From: Candidatus Aegiribacteria sp.
GTDB taxonomy: Bacteria; Fermentibacterota; Fermentibacteria; Fermentibacterales; JCC-6
Reading direction: 5' to 3'
Assembly: GCA_030613065.1 (NCBI GenBank)
Contig: JAUWMQ010000001.1
Span: 15,648-79,647 of the forward strand
DNA length: 64,000 nt
Shown here: positions 11,967 through 63,774 of the stretch, in pieces
Layout: every line of letters begins with the position of its first letter
Position numbering within the stretch: the stretch's first letter is position 1
The notes under the pieces: generated by a model
What the model was told of the DNA's origin: nothing
Database searches by the model: none
The model's input: only the letters and a program-made list of their open reading frames with translations
Program-made: the position numbers and the translations under genes

Positions 11967-13385
11967 ATGGCGGCAGTTCTGATAGCGGCGGGAATACTAT
12001 TTGGAACAGTTCAGCAGGCGGGACTGCCACTTCAGGATCCTCTTAACTGGTGGCTTTACATGCTGGAAACAGATTCGGAAACCATGCTTCCCGGAACCTT
12101 CCCGCTTGTAGATTCCCACTTCCTTAATGACGGCAATTCGTCAACAGGCTCCCTCGGAAGCATGGAGGGATTCCTTTTCACCAGAAGCTCATCACCAAAT
12201 GTCTCCAGGCCGGAAAGCCCTGCATTCTCACTGACTGGAACGGTTGCGGGGGAGGTGCTCAATTCCTCCGACAGTTTCGAGACCAGAACCGGAGCAACAG
12301 CCAGACTTTTCGTCGATATTTTTCCCGGGTTGTATCTCGATGAAAGGCTATCGGTCTGGGCAGGTTCCGACGAGAGTCCACCCGATTACTTCTCACCCTA
12401 TCATGAGGGCATGGAGAGAGGAAGGCACCTCTATGTGGACTGGGGCTATCTCCGGTGGAATAACGAAACCGTTTCGCTGGGCTTCGGAAGAATACCCCAG
12501 AGATGGGGACCGGGCAGGTTTACGCAGCTTCTTATCTCGAATAACAGCCCGTCACTTGATATGCTGAAAGTTCAGTTCAATCTCTGGAACACGCTGAGAT
12601 TTACAGGATTCACATCCACGATCGACAGCGATTCCGGCACATACCTTTCCGCTCACAGGCTGGATATTTCTCCTCGGGAAAACCTTCGGATAGGGCTCTG
12701 TGAATCGATTCTTTTTAAAGCTGAAGGAATGGATTTCGCGTACATGAATCCTGTCATTCCATGGTATCCGGTGCAGTGGAACGAACGGGTGGATGACAAT
12801 GCGTTTTTCAGCTTTGACGTGTCATGGAAACCTTTCAGTGGTGTAGAAACCTACGGTGAACTCCTTATCGATGATATCCAGTACGAGAACACCGGCGACA
12901 GGCCCAACAAACTCGGCTGGACGGCAGGATTGTCCGCATACATCAATCAGCTTGATCTGGGTACGGTGATCGAGTACACAAGAATTGACAGATATGTGTA
13001 CGGCCAGCGAAGGCCCTGTAACTTCTACCTGCATCATGGAGAGATAATAGGCTCGGAGCTGGGACCCGATGCCGACAGGGTAACACTGTCCCTTGGAACA
13101 TCAGCCGCCTGGCCCCTGCTGGGTGAGATCACGCTGGATCACACAAGACATGGAGAGGGAACAGTTCAGGAGGGCTGGCCTGACTCGGCCTCCACCGCCG
13201 GAGTGTTTCCTTCCGGAATAATAGAATACACAACAGGTGCTGAGCTGCACCTTGGATGGTATCCTCTTGATTTTCTTGAAATTCACGGAAATGTCGGAAA
13301 TAAGTGGATAAGGAACCTGAACCATGTTCCGGGTGAATCAGACTCCGATTTCGGAACCTCCCTTGAAGCCATCTACAACTGGTAA
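11967..13385 (+). CDS. Wzi-like (capsule-assembly family) outer-membrane beta-barrel protein
   Basis: 472 aa. The segment LGFGRIPQRWGPGRFTQLLISNNSPSLDMLKV resembles the Caps_assemb_Wzi signature (GR..l.WGPG...sLllS.NA.P). It is beta-rich and ends in an aromatic residue (YNW). Confidence 0.55.
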   Translation: MAAVLIAAGILFGTVQQAGLPLQDPLNWWLYMLETDSETMLPGTFPLVDSHFLNDGNSSTGSLGSMEGFLFTRSSSPNVSRPESPAFSLTGTVAGEVLNSSDSFETRTGATARLFVDIFPGLYLDERLSVWAGSDESPPDYFSPYHEGMERGRHLYVDWGYLRWNNETVSLGFGRIPQRWGPGRFTQLLISNNSPSLDMLKVQFNLWNTLRFTGFTSTIDSDSGTYLSAHRLDISPRENLRIGLCESILFKAEGMDFAYMNPVIPWYPVQWNERVDDNAFFSFDVSWKPFSGVETYGELLIDDIQYENTGDRPNKLGWTAGLSAYINQLDLGTVIEYTRIDRYVYGQRRPCNFYLHHGEIIGSELGPDADRVTLSLGTSAAWPLLGEITLDHTRHGEGTVQEGWPDSASTAGVFPSGIIEYTTGAELHLGWYPLDFLEIHGNVGNKWIRNLNHVPGESDSDFGTSLEAIYNW

Positions 13386-13575: not shown

Positions 13576-13627
13576 TGGCCCTAGAGGGTGGCCCTAGACG
13601 GTGGCCCTAGAGGGTGGCCCTAGAGGG
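13576..13627. repeat. 4 x 13 bp perfect-phase tandem repeat TGGCCCTAGAGGG (copy 2 has one mismatch)
   Basis: Copies lie at 13576-13588, 13589-13601 (..TAGACGG), 13602-13614 and 13615-13627. The last copy supplies the TAG stop (13622-13620) of the GNAT gene. It sits next to a ~190-bp AT-rich convergent spacer. Confidence 0.9.
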
Positions 13628-14084
13628 GATTGCCGTATATTCCCGGTGTACTGCCTTCGATGACCCTTGCGTCACATATCCTCTGGAAGAACTCTACGGG
13701 ACCCGCGTCACCTATGACAGCGTAACCGTAACCAGCTTCCCTCATGCTGTGCAGCGCAGCGATTACAACTGCTTTTCCGACACCTTTTCCGCAAGAGTCG
13801 TCGTGAACCCCAATAGGTCCCAGAAATCCCTTCGCGGTACAGTCCCAGCAGCAGAAACCGGCAAGTCTACCGGATACACTATCCACGGCAACGATTATCG
13901 TGGGCGGTACGGATCCAAAGGCGGCCCCGGCTTCCGCCTTCCAGCCGCTGCTGAAATTATCTCCAATGAATGAAAGGACATAGGGTGACTGGTGAGCGAG
14001 CGGTTTCCCTACCCACAAACCATCCTGTTCCGGGTTACCAGGCAGATCGTACAGCGGGACCAGGAGATCAGGCAAATAAACCAA
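13620..14084 (-). CDS. GNAT-family N-acetyltransferase
   Basis: 154 aa with an acetyl-CoA binding-like motif (IGVHDDSCGKGVGKAVVIAAL) and C-terminal YAVIGDAGPVEFF. Confidence 0.8.
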   Translation of the reverse strand: MVYLPDLLVPLYDLPGNPEQDGLWVGKPLAHQSPYVLSFIGDNFSSGWKAEAGAAFGSVPPTIIVAVDSVSGRLAGFCCWDCTAKGFLGPIGVHDDSCGKGVGKAVVIAALHSMREAGYGYAVIGDAGPVEFFQRICDARVIEGSTPGIYGNPL

Positions 14085-15826: not shown

Positions 15827-15902
<76 letters not shown>

Positions 15903-15951: not shown

Positions 15952-15978
15952 GGGGCCGGGCCTTTTCGACCCGGCCCC
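15952..15978 (-). terminator. GC-rich hairpin downstream of the four-gene membrane operon (terminator-like, no U-tract)
   Basis: GGGGCCGGG (15952-15960), loop CCTTTTCGA, CCCGGCCCC (15970-15978). It lies 10 nt after the stop of the 15989 gene and just upstream of the tRNA-Phe promoter. Confidence 0.4.
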
Positions 15979-15988
15979 TTCTGCTACA

Positions 15989-16618
15989 CTAATCTATCAC
16001 ATGCAGCCAATCACCCAGCAGATACTGTATCCTGCCGATGAGCAGGCTGATACGGCCCATAACGGTAAAACCGAAAGTGGCGCCGAAACCGAGCATGATC
16101 ACCCAGATACCGATTTTGGAACCCGTTCCGAAGAACAACCCCTTGTGCGGTTTGGAGAAGAAGAAGTAGATCAGCGCAGCAAGGGTTCCCAGAATCATCA
16201 CGCTGTTGCCAAGCACCTCATACCAGGGCATGCCCGACTGATAGAGGGGTACCATGGCGCCTTCCACCTGGCGAAGCACGTTAGCTTTCATGGTAAGAGG
16301 AAAACCAACACCCATGGCCGTTCCCATATAGAAACCTATGGGATATCTGGACAACCAGGATATCCGCGGAATGAACCTTGTTATGTACAGGAGTCCCAGA
16401 ATTCCCGGAATGAGCAGTATCCAGTGGTCACCGCTCAGGAGGGGATCTATGAGTCTTGGCTTCACGGTTATCTGGTATGTGATGGCCATTCCGTATCCTG
16501 CGGATATACCCACCACGAGGTGCTCCGCTAGCCTGTAGATAGGATTCTCCTTGTAAAGAAAGGAGTAGATGGCAAGCGTGAATAACGCGCCTACCCAGAT
16601 GCCTATGGTCTCATACAT
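15989..16618 (-). CDS. Polytopic membrane protein, unknown family (operon gene D)
   Basis: 209 aa with ~6 hydrophobic helices. ATG at 16618 is preceded by GGGAGGGAGG with a 7-nt spacer, 3 nt after the stop of gene C. Confidence 0.75.
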   Translation of the reverse strand: MYETIGIWVGALFTLAIYSFLYKENPIYRLAEHLVVGISAGYGMAITYQITVKPRLIDPLLSGDHWILLIPGILGLLYITRFIPRISWLSRYPIGFYMGTAMGVGFPLTMKANVLRQVEGAMVPLYQSGMPWYEVLGNSVMILGTLAALIYFFFSKPHKGLFFGTGSKIGIWVIMLGFGATFGFTVMGRISLLIGRIQYLLGDWLHVID

Positions 16619-16621
16619 TTC

Positions 16622-17623
16622 CTACCTCCCTCCCTTAAGCAGGGTCTTCTTATGAAAACCTCCTGCGAAGAACGCTAGGTTACCCATTATGATCAGCAGA
16701 ATAATGAATATATGTGCTGCTGACTGGACATCCATCCCGGTGAACGCCTTATCGGTGGAGGGTGTAATGCCGTTCTCGGCCAGAAGCACCTCATACTCGG
16801 CGGCACCCCGCAGACCTCCCATCTGGCCTATCACCTGTCCCGCCTGCAGGTACGGATAGTAATCCGTAGCCATAACGGCTGTAAGACCGAAAGCTATGGG
16901 CAACCCTATCTTCTCCCGGGCGTAGGTGACCCACCATACGCAGGCACCGGAGCCTGAACTGGTAAGGGCCATGTCCACTTCCCTGAGGCTTTTGTGTTCC
17001 TGAAGCATTGGCATTTCCCCCGTGGAGTTCCCGTGCGCGTCTACTGGGTACTGCGTTTCTATGGAAACGGTCATTCCCAGTATCACGAGGTTGAAAACAG
17101 GTGCATACCCCATAGCAGCATAATCCCTGCCTTCGAAAACCCATCCGAGGGCTCCTTCCGAAAGCTGGTTCCCCTGATTTTCCCAGGCCTCAACCAGCTC
17201 ACCCTTTGCTGTAACATCTGCTTCGCGAAGCTCCCTCCAGTCATCGAAAGGAACTTCCTGATAGAATCCTACCGTACTCGGATTGAATACATACTCCATG
17301 GCGGCAAGCATCATTCCATGATGCAGCGGCCAGTTCGCGGTCATGAACACCGGAACATTGTTATGGAACGCGTGGCGCATCACAGCCACTGCCATGGGCA
17401 TGTTCTCCGCCTGTGTACCGGGGGCGAAATCGAAACTTACGAAGATGGCATTATCCGGACCCAGATCATCCATGTAATAGAAGATATCCTCGACTTCGGT
17501 GGTAGTAACTACAGGCATTCCGAAGTTGATGAAGAACGGAACTATTGACACAACTGCTATCCCAAGGAAGATCCAGCGCCGGTCAATATTAAGCATTTTT
17601 TCCCAGATATTCACGGCACTCAC
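16622..17623 (-). CDS. Bitopic membrane protein with large central domain, unknown family (operon gene C)
   Basis: 333 aa. N-terminal TM (WIFLGIAVVSIVPFFINFG) and C-terminal TM (AAHIFIILLIIMGNLAFFAGGF). The GTG start directly abuts the TAG stop of gene B (TAGGTG). Confidence 0.75.
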   Translation of the reverse strand: MSAVNIWEKMLNIDRRWIFLGIAVVSIVPFFINFGMPVVTTTEVEDIFYYMDDLGPDNAIFVSFDFAPGTQAENMPMAVAVMRHAFHNNVPVFMTANWPLHHGMMLAAMEYVFNPSTVGFYQEVPFDDWRELREADVTAKGELVEAWENQGNQLSEGALGWVFEGRDYAAMGYAPVFNLVILGMTVSIETQYPVDAHGNSTGEMPMLQEHKSLREVDMALTSSGSGACVWWVTYAREKIGLPIAFGLTAVMATDYYPYLQAGQVIGQMGGLRGAAEYEVLLAENGITPSTDKAFTGMDVQSAAHIFIILLIIMGNLAFFAGGFHKKTLLKGGR

Positions 17624-18268
17624 CTACTTCCCTGCTCCGCCGAGCCAGTTACGCTCGACGCCGAATATTATTTTAAGATTTGTTGCCAGCATACCGAACC
17701 CGACTCCAAGCATTATAGCCCGTTTGGCCGCAAGGTTCGGGTAACGGAGTATCCAGAGACCCGTCTGGGGGAACCATTTACCTAACAGTTCTCCGATAGG
17801 TACCTGGCCCAGCATTACAATTATTGCCGAAAGCAGCAGCACTGTGGCAAGTGCCGATTTAGCCCTGAACGCCCTGAAGGCGGCACTTGCTATATAGAAG
17901 GCCAGCAGGCTGAACATGGTTGCCTGTATGGGAACCTGCACGTGCATGAATATGAAATGGAAAATACTGGGTGAATCCATCCCCCCGCTGAGGGATCCGG
18001 GCCATATGTGCGCCAGGACCGGCATCAGATAGAGCGGTATCAGCACGGCCCAGCTGTACTGCCAGTTCTTTGATTTCCTCCGTATCTTGTGTGAATGAAT
18101 CCTTGTGAGACTTCCGACTCCGAGTACGAGCGCGAACGCAAGAATTATAGGAGTCCAGTCCGTGTAGTACGCGAAAATAGTCTGCGATATCTGGTGAGGA
18201 ATGAAATACTGCAGGATCATCAGTATTCCGCCCACCATCACAATCATAAGCGGAACAGTTCTTTTCAC
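17624..18268 (-). CDS. Polytopic membrane protein, unknown family (operon gene B)
   Basis: 214 aa with ~6 hydrophobic helices. GTG start is preceded by AAGGAG with an 8-nt spacer. Confidence 0.75.
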   Translation of the reverse strand: MKRTVPLMIVMVGGILMILQYFIPHQISQTIFAYYTDWTPIILAFALVLGVGSLTRIHSHKIRRKSKNWQYSWAVLIPLYLMPVLAHIWPGSLSGGMDSPSIFHFIFMHVQVPIQATMFSLLAFYIASAAFRAFRAKSALATVLLLSAIIVMLGQVPIGELLGKWFPQTGLWILRYPNLAAKRAIMLGVGFGMLATNLKIIFGVERNWLGGAGK

Positions 18269-18292
18269 TGTTCTTTCTCCTTTCTGGTGGGC

Positions 18293-19552
18293 TTACTCTA
18301 TAATCGGACTGGTTACAAGAGCACGGAGCCAGTCCAGAATGTGAGTGTTCGCTACAACATCTATTATGCCGAATATCAGTGCTAACGTTATGAATCCCAT
18401 TATAATGCCCTTGCAGGCATCCTGCCCCTTCAGAGCGCCTATCTGTTTGGGCTCCCGCCCGAGGTACGCGCTGGCGGCGTACAGTTCCTCGCCTATCAGC
18501 GTATAGTCACAGGTTGTTATGAAGAAGGGCAGCTGGGTTACAGCATCGGTTCCGGCTATCTGAATGGCTCCGGAGAGGGAACCGGTCTCGGCAAGCAGCA
18601 GCGATTCGGCATAGAACATCCCGAGGTAGAAATTGGTGGCCGGTTTCTCTCTCATCATCATGCCATTGACACCCGCGACATAAGCGAACTGGCTGGTGGT
18701 GAGGAAGAAGACCGAATCCGGATCGTACGCGTCGGGACGTCCGGCTTCGAGGTATGCCTGTTTTACCACTTCCTCGGCTACCGTAAATACGATAGGATCA
18801 CGGTTGGGTACAATGAGCGGCGTCTGATACAGAGCTATCTTCTTGGCCACCCTTCCCAGAATGGTGAGGCTGGCGATGGTTGCCACGTCTGCGATGCTGG
18901 AAATCCCAGGTACGTAGAGAATAGGTTTCCCCATTTCGGTGGCTCTTCCTATAGCCTCATCGATGGCCTCTATACCGGCGATGGGCCGCATGTACATCTT
19001 TATGCCCCTCTGTGCTCTTCCGAAGTAGTAGAAGATGAGCAGGATGAACAGCAGACTTGCAATAAGTATCCTTGTTTTGCCGGTATGGTATATTTCACCC
19101 ACCGAGACAGCACCTGCTTCGAAAACAGGTCCGAAGAACTCCTCGCCATCAAGGGTTGCAGACGCAATCCTGTATTCGTACAGAACTCCCGGTTCGATCG
19201 GAAACTCGGGATCGAAACCATCGATGAACTCTGTCGGTTCAATCACAGGGATAATCTCTGCCAGTGTCCAGGAGTCTTCACCCTCTGCACCGGCAACACG
19301 CCGGTAGACATTGTAGGCAAAAACACCTGCAGTATTTTCCGGCGGTTCGAAGGAAACCACAAGCTGGTCTCCGGCATCGTTATCCTTATCCAGCACTGTG
19401 ACAATACCAGGCACATCAAGTCCGGGATCAGGTTCCTCCAGCTGTTCTCCTGCTACTGGTGTCAATATTTCGTCAACGCCCTGAGCAACTGACAGAGAAG
19501 GCAGCAGAAGGAGAATCATGAGGGCTGGAATACCTATCCAGTTCTTCCGCAT
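18293..19552 (-). CDS. Secreted/membrane protein: signal peptide + Ig/FN3-like ectodomain + TM + conserved-looking domain, unknown family (operon gene A)
   Basis: 419 aa. Signal peptide MRKNWIGIPALMILLLLPSLSVAQG, a beta-rich ~140 aa region (FAYNVYRR...YEYRIASATLDG), TM ILIASLLFILLIFYYFG, then ~230 aa ending in another TM. ATG lies after AGGTGG. Confidence 0.75.
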   Translation of the reverse strand: MRKNWIGIPALMILLLLPSLSVAQGVDEILTPVAGEQLEEPDPGLDVPGIVTVLDKDNDAGDQLVVSFEPPENTAGVFAYNVYRRVAGAEGEDSWTLAEIIPVIEPTEFIDGFDPEFPIEPGVLYEYRIASATLDGEEFFGPVFEAGAVSVGEIYHTGKTRILIASLLFILLIFYYFGRAQRGIKMYMRPIAGIEAIDEAIGRATEMGKPILYVPGISSIADVATIASLTILGRVAKKIALYQTPLIVPNRDPIVFTVAEEVVKQAYLEAGRPDAYDPDSVFFLTTSQFAYVAGVNGMMMREKPATNFYLGMFYAESLLLAETGSLSGAIQIAGTDAVTQLPFFITTCDYTLIGEELYAASAYLGREPKQIGALKGQDACKGIIMGFITLALIFGIIDVVANTHILDWLRALVTSPIIE

Positions 19553-19586: not shown

Positions 19587-20495
19587 TTACTCGAAAAATT
19601 CGTTTATCTCGCGGGCCACTTCGGCACCCACACGCTTTGAGGCGGCAGCGCTTCCGGCTCCGATATGAGGTGTAGCCACTGTTCTTTCGTATTCCACAAG
19701 GGTATTTCCTTTGGCTGGTTCCTCTTCGTAAACGTCAACTCCCGCGGCGAATACCTTCCCGGATTTCATTGCTTCCAGAAGGGCTGTTTCGTTTACCGTA
19801 CCTCCTCTGGCGCAGTTCACTACGATCACTCCATCCTTCATCATATCGAACTGAGGAGCGTCCAGAAGGTAATGTGTTTCCTTATTGTGAGGAATGTGAA
19901 GGCTTACGAAATCGGATTGTTTGCAGAGGGTATCAAGATCAACCTTCTGCGCACCTTCTGCATTATCAACAAAGGGATCGAAGAAAATTACGTTCATCCC
20001 GAATGCTTTTGCCCTTATAGCCACTTCCTGCGCGATTCGTCCGTATCCGATAAGACCCAGTGTCGAATTCCAGAGCTCTTTGCCTTTACCGTACGCTTTC
20101 TTGTTCCACTCGCCTTTTTTCATGGTGCAGTTCGCCGGACCAAGAAAGCGGCTGCATGCCAGCATATGGGCAAATGCAAGCTCGGCTACGGCAACGCTGC
20201 TGGCTGCAGGAGTATTCCGGACCGCTATGCCCAGTGCGGCGGCGTCATCAAGGTCGATGTTATCAAGTCCTACTCCGCCGCGGACTATCAGCTTCAGATT
20301 ACCTTTTGCAGCTTTTTCGAGTACGGGCTTTCTGACCTTCGTTGCGCTGCGTACAACCAGAGCGTCGAACTGCGGGGCAACCTCCATCAGTTCTTCCGGT
20401 GACATACCTGTTTTCTCAACAACTTCATGGCCGCCTTTTCGGATAGCTTCAAGAGCATCCTCGGCAACCGCATCACAAATGAGCACTCGTGCCAT
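19587..20495 (-). CDS. D-isomer-specific 2-hydroxyacid dehydrogenase (short SerA-like phosphoglycerate dehydrogenase, no ACT domain)
   Basis: 302 aa. NAD-binding site GLIGYGRIAQEV, LVVRSATKV, catalytic region ARGG...PHIGA. Confidence 0.85.
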   Translation of the reverse strand: MARVLICDAVAEDALEAIRKGGHEVVEKTGMSPEELMEVAPQFDALVVRSATKVRKPVLEKAAKGNLKLIVRGGVGLDNIDLDDAAALGIAVRNTPAASSVAVAELAFAHMLACSRFLGPANCTMKKGEWNKKAYGKGKELWNSTLGLIGYGRIAQEVAIRAKAFGMNVIFFDPFVDNAEGAQKVDLDTLCKQSDFVSLHIPHNKETHYLLDAPQFDMMKDGVIVVNCARGGTVNETALLEAMKSGKVFAAGVDVYEEEPAKGNTLVEYERTVATPHIGAGSAAASKRVGAEVAREINEFFE

Positions 20496-20556: not shown

Positions 20557-20585
20557 ATACTACAGATGACCCGGATTCAAGTCAA
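20557..20585 (-). promoter_or_regulatory. Sigma70-like promoter upstream of the serA-like gene (TTGACT-N17-TAGTAT)
   Basis: Minus-strand reading: TTGACT (20585-20580), a 17-nt spacer, then TAGTAT (20562-20557), ~60 nt upstream of ATG 20495. Confidence 0.4.
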
Positions 20586-20633: not shown

Positions 20634-21572
20634 TCATTGAAGTAACCTTTGTGCTTTCTCGACTATTGCAGATGCTGTAAGCCCGAATTTCGCCATCACT
20701 TCGGAGGGTGACCCGCTTGTGCCGAAACTGTCCCGGACAGAAACGGTATCCATGGGAACCGGCATTTCAAGCGCAAGGGTTTCCGCAACTGCGCAGAAGA
20801 GACCTCCTGTTGACTGGTGATCCTCGGCTACAACGACGGCTCCCGTCTTCTCAACCTGTCCCAAAAGCAGTTCTCTGTCCAGGGGTTTCACTGAAATCAT
20901 GTCAATAACTCCTGCGGAAATACCTCTTCCATTAAGAATGGATGCCGCCTCGATGGATAAACTCACCATTGCTCCACACGCAACAAGTGTTACGTCATTC
21001 CCATCAATCAGCAGATTTCCTCGGCCTATCTTCACCTTTTCATCACTGGTGTAAAGCTGAGGAACGGGATTTCTTCCGAAGCGTATGTAAACGGGACCCT
21101 CAGCTTCAATAGACGCAAGAACCGATGCCCTCGTCTGATTGGAGTCCGCCGGTACGAGGATCTTCATGTTGGGGAGCACCCGCATGAGGGCCACATCCTC
21201 CAGAGCCTGGTGGGTTGCTCCATCCGGCCCGACGCTCAACCCGCCGTGCGCGCCGGCGATTCGAACATCAAGGTTCATATAGCAGATGCCTGTCCTTATC
21301 TGATCCCACGCACGGCCGGCAATAAATACACCGTACGTTCCCACAAATGGTATGAACCCCTCGAGGGCAAGACCTGCCGCTTCGCCCAGCATATCCTGCT
21401 CGCTTACTCCAAGGTTGAAAAACCTGTCGGGGAATGCCTCTCTGAAAGAATTGCTTCCGATGGATCGGGATACATCTCCTTCGACCACAACAACCCGGCT
21501 GTTCTCTCTTCCAGCCTGCATAATCCCCTCAACATACCCTTCCCTCGTCGGTTTCAGGTTAAGATCCTTCAT
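20634..21572 (-). CDS. Transketolase, C-terminal (pyrimidine-binding) subunit
   Basis: 312 aa split-transketolase B subunit (FNLGVSEQDMLGEAAGLA, GPDGATHQALEDVALMR). Overlaps the N-terminal subunit by 4 nt. Confidence 0.9.
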   Translation of the reverse strand: MKDLNLKPTREGYVEGIMQAGRENSRVVVVEGDVSRSIGSNSFREAFPDRFFNLGVSEQDMLGEAAGLALEGFIPFVGTYGVFIAGRAWDQIRTGICYMNLDVRIAGAHGGLSVGPDGATHQALEDVALMRVLPNMKILVPADSNQTRASVLASIEAEGPVYIRFGRNPVPQLYTSDEKVKIGRGNLLIDGNDVTLVACGAMVSLSIEAASILNGRGISAGVIDMISVKPLDRELLLGQVEKTGAVVVAEDHQSTGGLFCAVAETLALEMPVPMDTVSVRDSFGTSGSPSEVMAKFGLTASAIVEKAQRLLQ

Positions 21573-22390
21573 GAAAGACCTCCCTGAATCTCACTTACAG
21601 CTGCCGCATATTCCTTTTCATCCGGGCATCTGCCGTGCCACAGGCATGTGTTCTCCATGAATGAAACACCTTTCCCCTTCACCGTATCGGCGAGTATAAC
21701 CGATGGGAACGGAGTTTCTGAGCAGTGCTCAAATGCCTTTTCAAGGGACGGAAAACTGTGTCCATCGGCGACTATCACATCCCATCCGAATGCCAGCCAT
21801 TTGTCAACGAGAGGTTCTATCTCCATTACCTCCGAAACCGGCCCATCCAGCTGTACGCGATTCCGATCCACAATGGCTGTAAGATGTTTAAGATTGTAAT
21901 GGGATGCGGTCATTGCCGCTTCCCATACACTTCCCTCCTGCAGCTCTCCATCACCCAGCAGGCAGAATACGCGGCTCTTCCTGCCATCCAGCCTTAGCCC
22001 GTGAGCAATTCCGCACGCTATGGAGAGACCCTGTCCCAGGCTTCCGGTGGAGGCATCCAGACCTGGAAGGACGAGCATGTTTGGATGACCCTGCAGCCTG
22101 GATCCGAATTTCCTGAGGGTCAGAAGTTCAGCAGGATCGAAATACCCCCTTCTGGCGAGAACCGAATAGAGTGCGGGACACGCGTGACCCTTGGAGAGAA
22201 TGAACCTGTCCCTCCCTCCCCAGCGGGGCTCCTCTGGACGATTATTCATCACATTCCAGTACAGCTCAACAAGAGTCTCTACTGAGGAAAACGAACCCCC
22301 CGGATGGCCGCTTCCTGCAGCCCTGATCATCTCAAGCACATCCAATCGAACGCACAGGGCCAGGTCTTGCATTTGCGCATTATCTATCAT
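21569..22390 (-). CDS. Transketolase, N-terminal (TPP-binding) subunit
   Basis: 273 aa. GSGHPGGSFSSVE, GSLGQGLSIA, LLGDGELQEGSVWEA. Confidence 0.9.
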   Translation of the reverse strand: MIDNAQMQDLALCVRLDVLEMIRAAGSGHPGGSFSSVETLVELYWNVMNNRPEEPRWGGRDRFILSKGHACPALYSVLARRGYFDPAELLTLRKFGSRLQGHPNMLVLPGLDASTGSLGQGLSIACGIAHGLRLDGRKSRVFCLLGDGELQEGSVWEAAMTASHYNLKHLTAIVDRNRVQLDGPVSEVMEIEPLVDKWLAFGWDVIVADGHSFPSLEKAFEHCSETPFPSVILADTVKGKGVSFMENTCLWHGRCPDEKEYAAAVSEIQGGLS

Positions 22391-47645: not shown

Positions 47646-47711
47646 AAATGCCTCCGTTCCCGAATTAATGCCGGCCATACATGTCTGCTGGACAAGCTTC
47701 ACAAGATGCAA

Positions 47712-47940
47712 TCTGCAGCCAGCTCAGATCAGGTTATCCTGTATCGCCCATCAGACATCGCTTACCGCTGCTACCTTCCGGTTCTGACGGGATTCACGGG
47801 CTGACGCCGCACAGGTCCTGGTCATCAACACCACTTACATAAATACAGACTCGCTACGCATTGCCGCACAGATGTTTCAGCCCCGCTGTAGCGGATTGCG
47901 GGTACAGGGCACCGCTAGCTCCCCGCCTAGCACAGCCGGC
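47712..47940 (-). ncRNA. ffs: Signal recognition particle RNA, long (Alu-domain-containing, Bacillus-type) form
   Basis: The reverse complement contains GTGCTAGGCGGGGAGCTAGCGGTGCCCTGTACCCGCAATCCGCTACAGCGGGG and AAGTGGTGTTGA (Alu-domain motifs as in B. subtilis scRNA). It also contains the S-domain core GTCAGAACCGGAAGGTAGCAGC (cf. GUCAGGUCCGGAAGGAAGCAGC). The 5' GCCGGCT can pair with the 3' AGCTGGC. Ends are +/-10 nt. Confidence 0.85.
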
Positions 47941-48880: not shown

Positions 48881-48956
48881 TGGTGGAGATGAGCGGGATC
48901 GAACCGCCGACCTCTGCCTTGCGAAGGCAGCGCTCTTCCAACTGAGCTACATCCCC
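48881..48956 (-). tRNA. tRNA-Ala (CGC), CCA encoded
   Basis: Reverse complement is GGGGATGTAGCTCAGTTGGAAGAGCGCTGCCTTCGCAAGGCAGAGGTCGGCGGTTCGATCCCGCTCATCTCCACCA. The G3:U70 identity pair is present, and the anticodon loop is TTCGCAA. Confidence 0.95.
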
Positions 48957-50811: not shown

Positions 50812-50904
50812 TGGCGGAGAGAGAGGGATTCGAACCCTCGAGAACGAATACACGCCCTACACGGTTTCCAACCGTGCTCCTTCGACCAGCTCGGACATCT
50901 CTCC
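50812..50904 (-). tRNA. tRNA-Ser (GGA), type II with long variable arm, CCA encoded
   Basis: Reverse complement is GGAGAGATGTCCGAGCTGGTCGAAGGAGCACGGTTGGAAACCGTGTAGGGCGTGTATTCGTTCTCGAGGGTTCGAATCCCTCTCTCTCCGCCA. Confidence 0.93.
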
Positions 50905-63689: not shown

Positions 63690-63774
63690 GGAGGGCTAGT
63701 CTAATGGTAAGGCAGCGGATTTGAAATCCGCCGGGTTTAATCCCTTCGGGGTTCGACTCCCCGGTCCTCCGCCA
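63690..63774 (+). tRNA. tRNA-Ser (UGA), type II, CCA encoded
   Basis: GGAGGGCTAGTCTAATGGTAAGGCAGCGGATTTGAAATCCGCCGGGTTTAATCCCTTCGGGGTTCGACTCCCCGGTCCTCCGCCA. Acceptor GGAGGGC/GTCCTCC (one G:U), anticodon stem GCGGA/TCCGC with loop TTTGAAA, a 15-nt variable arm, and T-arm CGGGG-TTCGACT-CCCCG. The D-arm is unusually compact for a Ser tRNA. Confidence 0.85.

Follow-up and report, generated by a model that had tools for sequence, protein, structure and literature searches.

A conserved four-gene membrane module containing DUF6754 in Candidatus Aegiribacteria and other bacterial phyla

Pfam lists a domain, DUF6754 (PF20539), for which it gives no function, and a literature search for DUF6754 and PF20539 found no paper in the library searched. 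The same domain is present in the first of four consecutive genes, here called A, B, C and D, in a 64,000-nucleotide stretch of the Candidatus Aegiribacteria sp. assembly GCA_030613065.1 (contig JAUWMQ010000001.1, positions 15,648 to 79,647 of the forward strand; hereafter the window). The entry covers A only; Pfam and NCBIfam hold none for the partners B, C and D or for the A-B-C-D module. Parts of the locus recall other described systems. Two subunits of roughly 200 residues with six transmembrane (TM) helices each and opposite predicted orientations, together with a TM-anchored periplasmic alpha/beta subunit, are reminiscent of the Rnf and Na+-NQR complexes, and some lineages add a partner whose barrel-sandwich domain resembles RnfC_N/NqrA_N. 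The outward alpha/beta domain of C beside small polytopic subunits, and the paralogous repeated operons, are features shared with ABC, ECF, TRAP and TTT transporters, and the order TM, periplasmic alpha/beta domain, TM in C resembles that of ABC-2/GldG-type auxiliaries. Co-polymerases of the Wzz/Wzc class have the layout of C (N-in, one TM, about 250 residues outside, one TM, C-in), and capsule or glycan genes lie near the module in some lineages. Within the reach of our searches (Pfam, NCBIfam, PADLOC, PDB sequences and Foldseek of C against the PDB), the module matches no known kind. We tentatively favour, with somewhat less than even confidence, a reading of A to D as the subunits of one self-contained complex of the cytoplasmic membrane, of an uncharacterised family, that would translocate a small solute or ion.

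The four genes constitute a tightly coupled, co-oriented membrane module without a characterised relative, as the initial annotation of this DNA had proposed. The four consecutive minus-strand open reading frames (ORFs) were recovered at the coordinates first assigned to them (Table 1), with spacers of 24, 0 and 3 nt, and each is present in a single copy in the window. We use the term DUF6754 module for co-oriented A-B-C-D with short or overlapping intergenic gaps, and the window locus has this order, strand and spacing. The same four genes, on one strand and in one order, were found in about 120 fetched loci from at least six phyla. In 45 genome loci searched with tblastn and phmmer, A-B-C-D occurs in Fermentibacteria, Eisenbacteria, Planctomycetota and Bacillota; Acidobacteriota and WOR-3 were added by look-up of individual relatives. 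The C profile, run against metagenome contigs, picked up 80 further loci (30-38% identity); as far as each contig extends, the order is the same. When a strict ORF criterion was applied, 79 of the 95 C genes with enough flanking DNA had A-B upstream and D downstream; among the remaining 16, several are ORF-calling overlaps or gaps of more than 200 nt, some have no called D and four have no recognisable A beside B. The arrangement is far beyond chance, and the gene order is conserved across phyla, so that the outcome named at the start as a refutation, its absence from related genomes, did not occur. In several of these phyla, stop and start codons overlap or are directly adjacent. Tandem repetition of whole modules is frequent: Eisenbacteria, Planctomycetota and WOR-3 have (ABCD)2, and one locus each from Bacillota and the metagenomes has three modules.

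All four proteins are membrane-embedded, as first described, judging from hydropathy and, for C, from an AlphaFold2 model. The topology of the window proteins was read from hydropathy and charge bias (the positive-inside rule), and the complex would total about 16 TM helices (2+6+2+6). As in the initial annotation, scans against Pfam and NCBIfam found no ATPase, cofactor or catalytic signature in A to D. Redox cofactor motifs and defence signatures were not found in A to D either, PADLOC giving no match at E<=0.1, and for B, C and D there was no match in Pfam, NCBIfam, PADLOC or PDB sequences.

For A, on the other hand, the earlier statement that no family could be named does not hold. Residues 153-402 match DUF6754 with an E value of 5.7e-114 (380 bits against a cut-off of 27), and the match covers profile positions 4-253 of 257, that is, nearly the whole domain end to end. 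The family comprises at least 8000 database clusters at 90% identity; DUF6754 is present in all fetched relatives, whose source names are 'DUF6754 domain-containing' or 'fibronectin type III domain-containing'. The nearest public relatives, at 88% identity, come from metagenome-assembled genomes of Candidatus Aegiribacteria/Fermentibacteria and carry the latter label at NCBI. Hydropathy agrees with the membrane layout given originally, with a signal peptide, an acidic ectodomain, a TM helix, about 200 residues and a terminal TM helix. By the positive-inside rule the DUF6754 region is predicted to face the cytoplasm. Within it, residues 301-375 are invariant or near-invariant from Fermentibacteria to Bacillota, with E316, E322, D349 and E356 invariant, a pattern suggesting that this segment is likely the functional core or a subunit interface. 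A profile search of A against PDB sequences gave nothing significant. AlphaFold2 applied to A alone (residues 150-419) reached a predicted local distance difference test (pLDDT) score of 63, with the invariant segment below 50, and a Foldseek search with this model was discarded as meaningless, the model being too poor.

The description of the Ig/FN3-like ectodomain of A needs revision. The A-family profile matches the FN3 domains of neogenin and Robo1 weakly (E 0.11-0.7), and Pfam fn3 was not found in the window protein at E<=1. The module appears to be a lineage-specific decoration, added on to the family core, because the Bacillota A proteins, of about 257 residues (TM, DUF6754, TM), have no FN3 part. 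It had been taken to be surface-exposed; if Fermentibacteria have an outer membrane, as we presume from their placement in the FCB (Fibrobacteres-Chlorobi-Bacteroidetes) superphylum, it would be periplasmic instead. Several Aegiribacteria genomes hold a lone extra A paralogue of about 388 residues (about 65% identical), some 2 kb downstream of D; it has no B, C or D of its own, and neither the window nor the closest relative of the window, L005, carries it.

Hydropathy and the AlphaFold2 model both place TM helices at the N- and C-terminus of C, around about 260 residues, as had been noted. The model, built from a 121-sequence alignment, has a pLDDT of 91.3 and a predicted template modelling score of 0.87, and shows, between the TM helices at residues 15-31 and 292-320, an alpha/beta domain in which short strands and helices take turns. 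This domain probably faces outward, because the positive-inside rule places it outside the cytoplasm and relatives carry CARDB-like repeat insertions at one of its loops. In P0374 these repeats occupy the same loop as the Fermentibacteria-specific insertion of C. The conserved residues D65, D167, D195, D254, G269-G270-x-R272, E276 and E278 map to the C-terminal ends of strands or to positions just following them, and such ends are the usual ligand site in alpha/beta folds of this type; in the model, the conserved acidic and glycine residues may form a ligand pocket. Foldseek of the C model against the PDB gave no match at E<=1e-3. The best, non-significant match is the periplasmic sugar-binding protein 4ru1 (E 2.7e-3), and TM-scores among the matches listed are at most 0.28. 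The C family has 3972 representatives at 50% identity in 1.84e9 proteins, and every member of the alignment, scanned against Pfam at E<=10, yielded scattered noise only. Four relatives carry large insertions at the site of residues 113-160, namely P0374, P0465, P0453 and P0383, the last a tandem C-C protein. What is inserted are CARDB-like or HEAT-like repeats or a helical segment.

B and D have about six TM segments each, in agreement with the first description of them. Together their relatives account for 1517 matches, and 12 diverse B+D pairs scanned against Pfam at E<=10 gave scattered noise only. The invariant polar or charged residues, H58, N178 and E205 in B and N25, E32, R81, R91, Q117, R189 and R196 in D, are mostly in predicted cytoplasmic loops; the family alignments of B, C and D contain no invariant Cys. 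B is predicted to be N-in/C-in, and an Ig-like insertion in the TM3-TM4 loop of its relative P0213 is consistent with an outward-facing loop. D is probably N-out/C-out, because the Planctomycetota D proteins have an extra seventh TM helix followed by a K/R tail, which would fix its orientation. The TM3-TM4 loop of the B relatives P0213 and P0125 bears an Ig-like domain or a Cys-rich ribbon.

In a translocation complex of the kind we favour, C would serve as the tethered outer receptor, with its ligand pocket outside, and B and D would form the transmembrane path. The DUF6754 domain of A would dock on the cytoplasmic loops of B and D, which are strongly conserved, and an ion gradient would drive A as the gate or coupling module on the cytoplasmic side. 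Where A is preceded by a GlmL/MutL-type ASKHA ATPase and a 375-residue barrel-sandwich protein, these partners may assist. The tandem repeated modules, as in many paralogous transporter operons, argue for this reading, as do the insertions of outward type (CARDB-like in C, Ig-like in B, FN3 in A) and the clustering of conserved D/E/G/R residues of C at strand C-termini. The conserved synteny and tight coupling, the invariant polar or charged residues of A, B and D, the non-significant fold match of C to a sugar-binding protein, the lack of any other identity for A to D and the recurrent accessory partners count in its favour too. Several points weigh on the other side. The module has no homology to any transporter. 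The roles of path and gate are guesses, with a pLDDT of 63 for A and with B and D read from hydropathy and charge bias, and the physical association of A to D is presumed from synteny only. No riboswitch or regulator hints at a substrate, and the neighbours vary by phylum: serA-like in Fermentibacteria, GcvP/LplA in Eisenbacteria-like loci, GT4/Wzi-like or PMT_2 (envelope) genes, and FtsW/MreB in Bacillota. Large outer decorations of FN3, CARDB and HEAT type are unusual for small-solute carriers and better fit envelope-polymer machines. Finally, in four loci (L087, L093, L127, L128) no recognisable A stands next to B-C-D. Judged by eye, the gene that precedes B is pseudouridine synthase-like in L087 and L093 and histidine kinase-like in L127.

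Comparison with known transporters adds differences to the likenesses given above. A to D have no nucleotide-binding subunit, no Walker motifs and no ABC_tran or permease match in Pfam or NCBIfam, which sets them apart from ABC and ECF systems; nor was ABC_tran or a permease found among the Pfam-annotated genes flanking seven loci or the ten recurrent neighbour families scanned. DctP, DctQ and DctM of TRAP systems and TctA, TctB and TctC of TTT systems had no match in the module proteins (Pfam, NCBIfam). The lack of an energy-coupling subunit in most loci would suit a membrane-anchored sensor, enzyme or scaffold, in which, for example, ligand binding by the outer alpha/beta domain of C is signalled to the DUF6754 domain. 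The conserved cytoplasmic face beside a variable outer face, and the pocket-like conservation in C, are in keeping with such a role. However, no output domain (kinase, cyclase or DNA-binding) is fused or conserved nearby, and two polytopic six-TM subunits and repeated tandem modules would be costly for a pure sensor, and we regard this alternative as quite unlikely.

The genes around the module raise another alternative to translocation of a small solute or ion, namely an envelope-polymer machine that exports, polymerises or anchors a cell-envelope glycan or glycoconjugate; the A domain would handle an activated precursor, and the C ectodomain and the decorations would act on the polymer outside. 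In the window, genes for a GT4 glycosyltransferase, a GNAT protein and a Wzi-like capsule-assembly protein lie just downstream of the module, an arrangement that recurs in Aegiribacteria loci. A Wzi-like gene is also found downstream, on the same strand, in three distant metagenome loci (L086, L090 and L094, in the last about 700 nt after C). A PMT_2/TPR glycosyltransferase gene follows (ABCD)2 in WOR-3, and genes for an NAD-dependent epimerase, FtsW/RodA and MreB are near the Bacillota modules. Polymer-binding proteins typically bear decorations such as those on the outer face, and the TM-ectodomain-TM topology of C is that of polysaccharide co-polymerases and GldG-type auxiliaries. Nevertheless, conservation across phyla is seen for none of these neighbours, many loci lack an envelope gene in their vicinity, and the same core is found in Bacillota and in other phyla despite very different envelopes. 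Nor is there any Pfam or fold similarity to Wzz, Wzx, Wzy, GT-A/B/C or GldG. Wzz proteins have a long helical periplasmic domain, whereas the domain of C is alpha/beta; C has no Pfam match to Wzz, and no Wzz structure is among the listed Foldseek matches. On balance an envelope-polymer machine, the main rival to our reading, appears somewhat unlikely.

Directly upstream of A, at least 23 loci from several lineages have genes for a GlmL/MutL-type ASKHA protein (PF13941, about 600 residues) and a 375-residue protein. The pair occurs in about a third of the loci outside Fermentibacteria, and the window has neither the ATPase nor the 375-residue protein. In L055 the two are fused into one protein of 916 residues, the second part of which gives barrel-sandwich matches to RnfC_N (E 2.4e-5) and NQRA_N (E 3.2e-3). 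Beyond the barrel-sandwich region, no Pfam or NCBIfam match was found for the 375-residue protein, and no PDB relative in a profile search. These matches, and the sizes and opposite predicted orientations of B and D, which resemble those of RnfA/E and NqrD/E, suggested a distant, cofactor-poor relative or analogue of the Rnf/Na+-NQR-type ion-translocating complexes. We consider this highly improbable, and kinship was largely refuted at the sequence level. No member has a Pfam match to Rnf-Nqr, FMN_bind or NQR2_RnfD. The RnfA/RnfE/NqrD/NqrE family, in particular, had no Pfam match in B or D of the window or in the 12 B+D pairs; hhalign of the A to D profiles against E. coli RsxA-E and RsxG gave probabilities of at most 0.9%, RsxA and RsxE included, and C showed no similarity to RsxG that would identify it as a flavin mononucleotide (FMN)-binding subunit. 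The DUF6754 module differs further in having another gene order and no Fe-S cysteines, flavin motifs, 10-TM RnfD/NqrB or NADH/ferredoxin module. The absence of invariant Cys from B, C and D tells against kinship as well; no SGAT flavinylation motif was seen, and no gene for an NADH- or ferredoxin-oxidising subunit adjoins the module in the window. The barrel-sandwich domain is, moreover, generic, and the protein that carries it is absent from the window.

A stronger form of the translocation reading would make the module a new class of translocation machine without kinship to ABC, secondary-carrier, Rnf/Nqr or secretion systems, in which 16 TM helices couple the DUF6754 domain to an outer receptor of novel fold, often with a GlmL/MutL-type actin-fold ATPase and a barrel-sandwich adaptor, and with A/B and C/D halves that are perhaps inverted and pseudo-symmetric. 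Put this specifically, the proposal is unlikely. Were it true, the actin-fold ATPase and the barrel-sandwich adaptor would represent an undescribed way to energise transport. More generally, the module comprises thousands of sequences in at least six phyla, yet is without assigned function, literature or structural relative. Uncultured anaerobes dominate the host phyla (Fermentibacteria, Eisenbacteria, WOR-3, anammox-related Planctomycetota, Acidobacteriota and Clostridia); some members are assigned to Clostridia-class Bacillota and to Planctomycetota, phyla that include cultivable organisms. Solving the module could reveal a new principle of transport or envelope assembly, possibly with a new membrane use of an actin-fold ATPase, and four recurrent 'hypothetical membrane protein' annotations would become usable in metabolic reconstructions of these lineages.

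The pseudo-symmetry just mentioned goes back to the initial annotation, in which similarity seen by eye between A and C and between B and D had suggested an (A+B)/(C+D) duplication. BLASTP finds nothing for either pair. With hhalign, probabilities were 0.5-0.6% for A/C and 0.2-0.4% for B/D, the same as for the cross-controls A-B, A-D, C-B and C-D, with small profiles and with profiles of 71-139 sequences alike. The idea that an ancient duplication gave rise to (A+B) and (C+D) as the two halves, inverted in topology, of a pseudo-symmetric complex is therefore no better supported by alignment than its controls, and we hold it to be improbable. Some features do agree with it. Predicted orientations are opposite in both pairs (A N-out, C N-in; B N-in, D probably N-out), B and D both have about 210 residues and six TM segments, and A and C are laid out alike, with a TM helix, about 29 residues, beta1, about 33 residues, beta2 and a helix, and at the end a helix followed by a TM helix. 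The segments originally paired by eye are beta1 and beta2 of a beta-alpha-beta unit, at equal distance after the first TM helix in both models. The unit common to A and C is suggestive, as far as the models go, but the motif is generic. In addition, TM and loop spacing differs between B and D (long loops follow TM3 and TM5 in B and TM4 in D), the orientation of D is insecure, and a duplication would not usually leave one folded soluble domain on each side of the membrane. In other phyla, the duplicated unit is the whole ABCD module.

Details of gene starts and transcription signals were also examined. The Shine-Dalgarno-like motifs reported earlier were located, AAAGGTGGA before A, AAAGGAGAAAG before B and GGGAGGGAGG before D. 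The true start of C is probably the second GTG (17614), giving 330 residues, because the 100%-identical database protein P0001 is called so and the ribosome-binding motif is better there (AGGTGA, 5 nt upstream); with this start, the B stop codon sits within the ribosome-binding site of C. The A to D ORFs share one reading frame, their starts differing by multiples of 3, which is probably a coincidence. The GC-rich hairpin after D, put forward as the end of the transcription unit, does fold (a 51-nt stretch with the 11-bp stem, at -28 kcal/mol), but no U-tract follows it, and because of this a terminator scan of the window left it uncalled; it likely marks the end of the unit all the same. At the other end, the motif proposed as the promoter is present, but such motifs are no more frequent than by chance (4 found, 6.1 expected from shuffles). 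The consensus scored was sigma-70-like and may not be the promoter type of this phylum. The tRNA-Phe (GAA) gene has a TTGACC-N17-TAAATT motif in front of it, at 15943-15915.

Table 1. Features of the DUF6754 module and its surroundings (window coordinates unless a locus is named).
Feature	Position	Strand	Description
Gene A	18293..19552	minus	ORF of 419 aa; signal peptide, FN3-like ectodomain, TM, DUF6754 region, terminal TM
A, acidic FN3-like ectodomain	19103..19420	minus	about residues 45-150; about 24 D/E vs 6 K/R
A, DUF6754 region	18347..19096	minus	residues 153-402: TM1, predicted cytoplasmic alpha/beta sub-domain, ultra-conserved segment, TM2
A, ultra-conserved acidic/hydrophobic segment	18428..18652	minus	residues 301-375: ...AESLLLAETG..GAIQIAGT..QLPFF..CDYTLIGEELYAASAYL
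Gene B	17624..18268	minus	ORF of 214 aa; 6-TM protein, predicted N-in/C-in
Gene C	16622..17623	minus	ORF of 333 aa; TM, acidic alpha/beta ectodomain, TM
C, predicted extracytoplasmic alpha/beta domain	16751..17506	minus	about residues 40-291; Fermentibacteria-specific insertion ~113-160
Gene D	15989..16618	minus	ORF of 209 aa; 6-TM + C-terminal amphipathic helix, probably N-out/C-out
GC-rich hairpin	15952..15978	minus	directly 3' of D; 11-bp GC stem
tRNA-Phe (GAA)	15827-15902	minus	immediately 3' of the module-ending hairpin
Short D-2-hydroxyacid / 3-phosphoglycerate dehydrogenase-like (serA-like) gene	19587..20495	minus	302 aa, 34 nt from A
Sigma-70-like motif TTGACT-N17-TAGTAT	20557..20585	minus	upstream of the dehydrogenase gene; matches 9/12 positions
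Wzi-like capsule-assembly protein (PF14052)	11967-13385	plus	opposite the module strand here and in Aegiribacteria
MutL-type + 375-aa pair	L030 4720-7704; L050 586-3579; L055 7702-10452; many of L063-L131
Lone A paralogue	L004 13458-14624; also L007, L009, L010, L011, L025

Wherever a Fermentibacteria locus extends far enough on the 5' side of A, the serA-like gene is the immediate upstream neighbour of A, a linkage seen in no other phylum; the gene is possibly co-transcribed with the module. Both 2-Hacid_dh domains match strongly (2-Hacid_dh_C at 1.6e-56). Against TIGR01327 the protein reaches 343.9 bits where the cut-off is 454, and the alignment takes in only profile positions 1-300 of 525; from its sequence we class the product as a short 2-hydroxyacid dehydrogenase of uncertain substrate. 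Directly upstream of it, at 20634-22390 (minus strand), is a split transketolase, with a Transketolase_N half of 273 residues and a half of 312 residues that holds the pyrimidine-binding and C-terminal parts, the two genes overlapping by 4 nt. In 21-24 related loci, the second and third genes upstream of A belong to families that match these halves in size.

In Eisenbacteria-like loci, a gene for an LplA-like ligase is often found 3' of the module, beside a GcvP gene. Lipoylation of the 375-residue protein by this neighbour, an idea that came from a weak Biotin_lipoyl match, was rejected by eye, the hairpin position reading A-R-T instead of the modified lysine; LplA more likely serves the adjacent glycine-cleavage genes. 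A riboswitch search of the window and 11 diverse loci found none before any module. Cyclic di-GMP-II riboswitches in L043 (10611-10695) and L044 (16601-16684), both on the minus strand, precede giant surface-protein genes of 890 and 1509 residues, which are convergent to the Bacillota modules; the 890-residue protein has SLH, VWA and pilin-like domains, and L043 has a further cyclic di-GMP-I riboswitch at 13585-13669. In two Bacillota loci a 301-residue DUF483-containing protein is encoded 3' of D (L041, 6885-7793; L038, 11019-11924, minus strand), the two copies being 47% identical. The window also contains the bacterial large signal recognition particle RNA at 47675-47935 (minus strand) and further tRNA genes at 48884-48956, 50815-50904 and 63690-63771.

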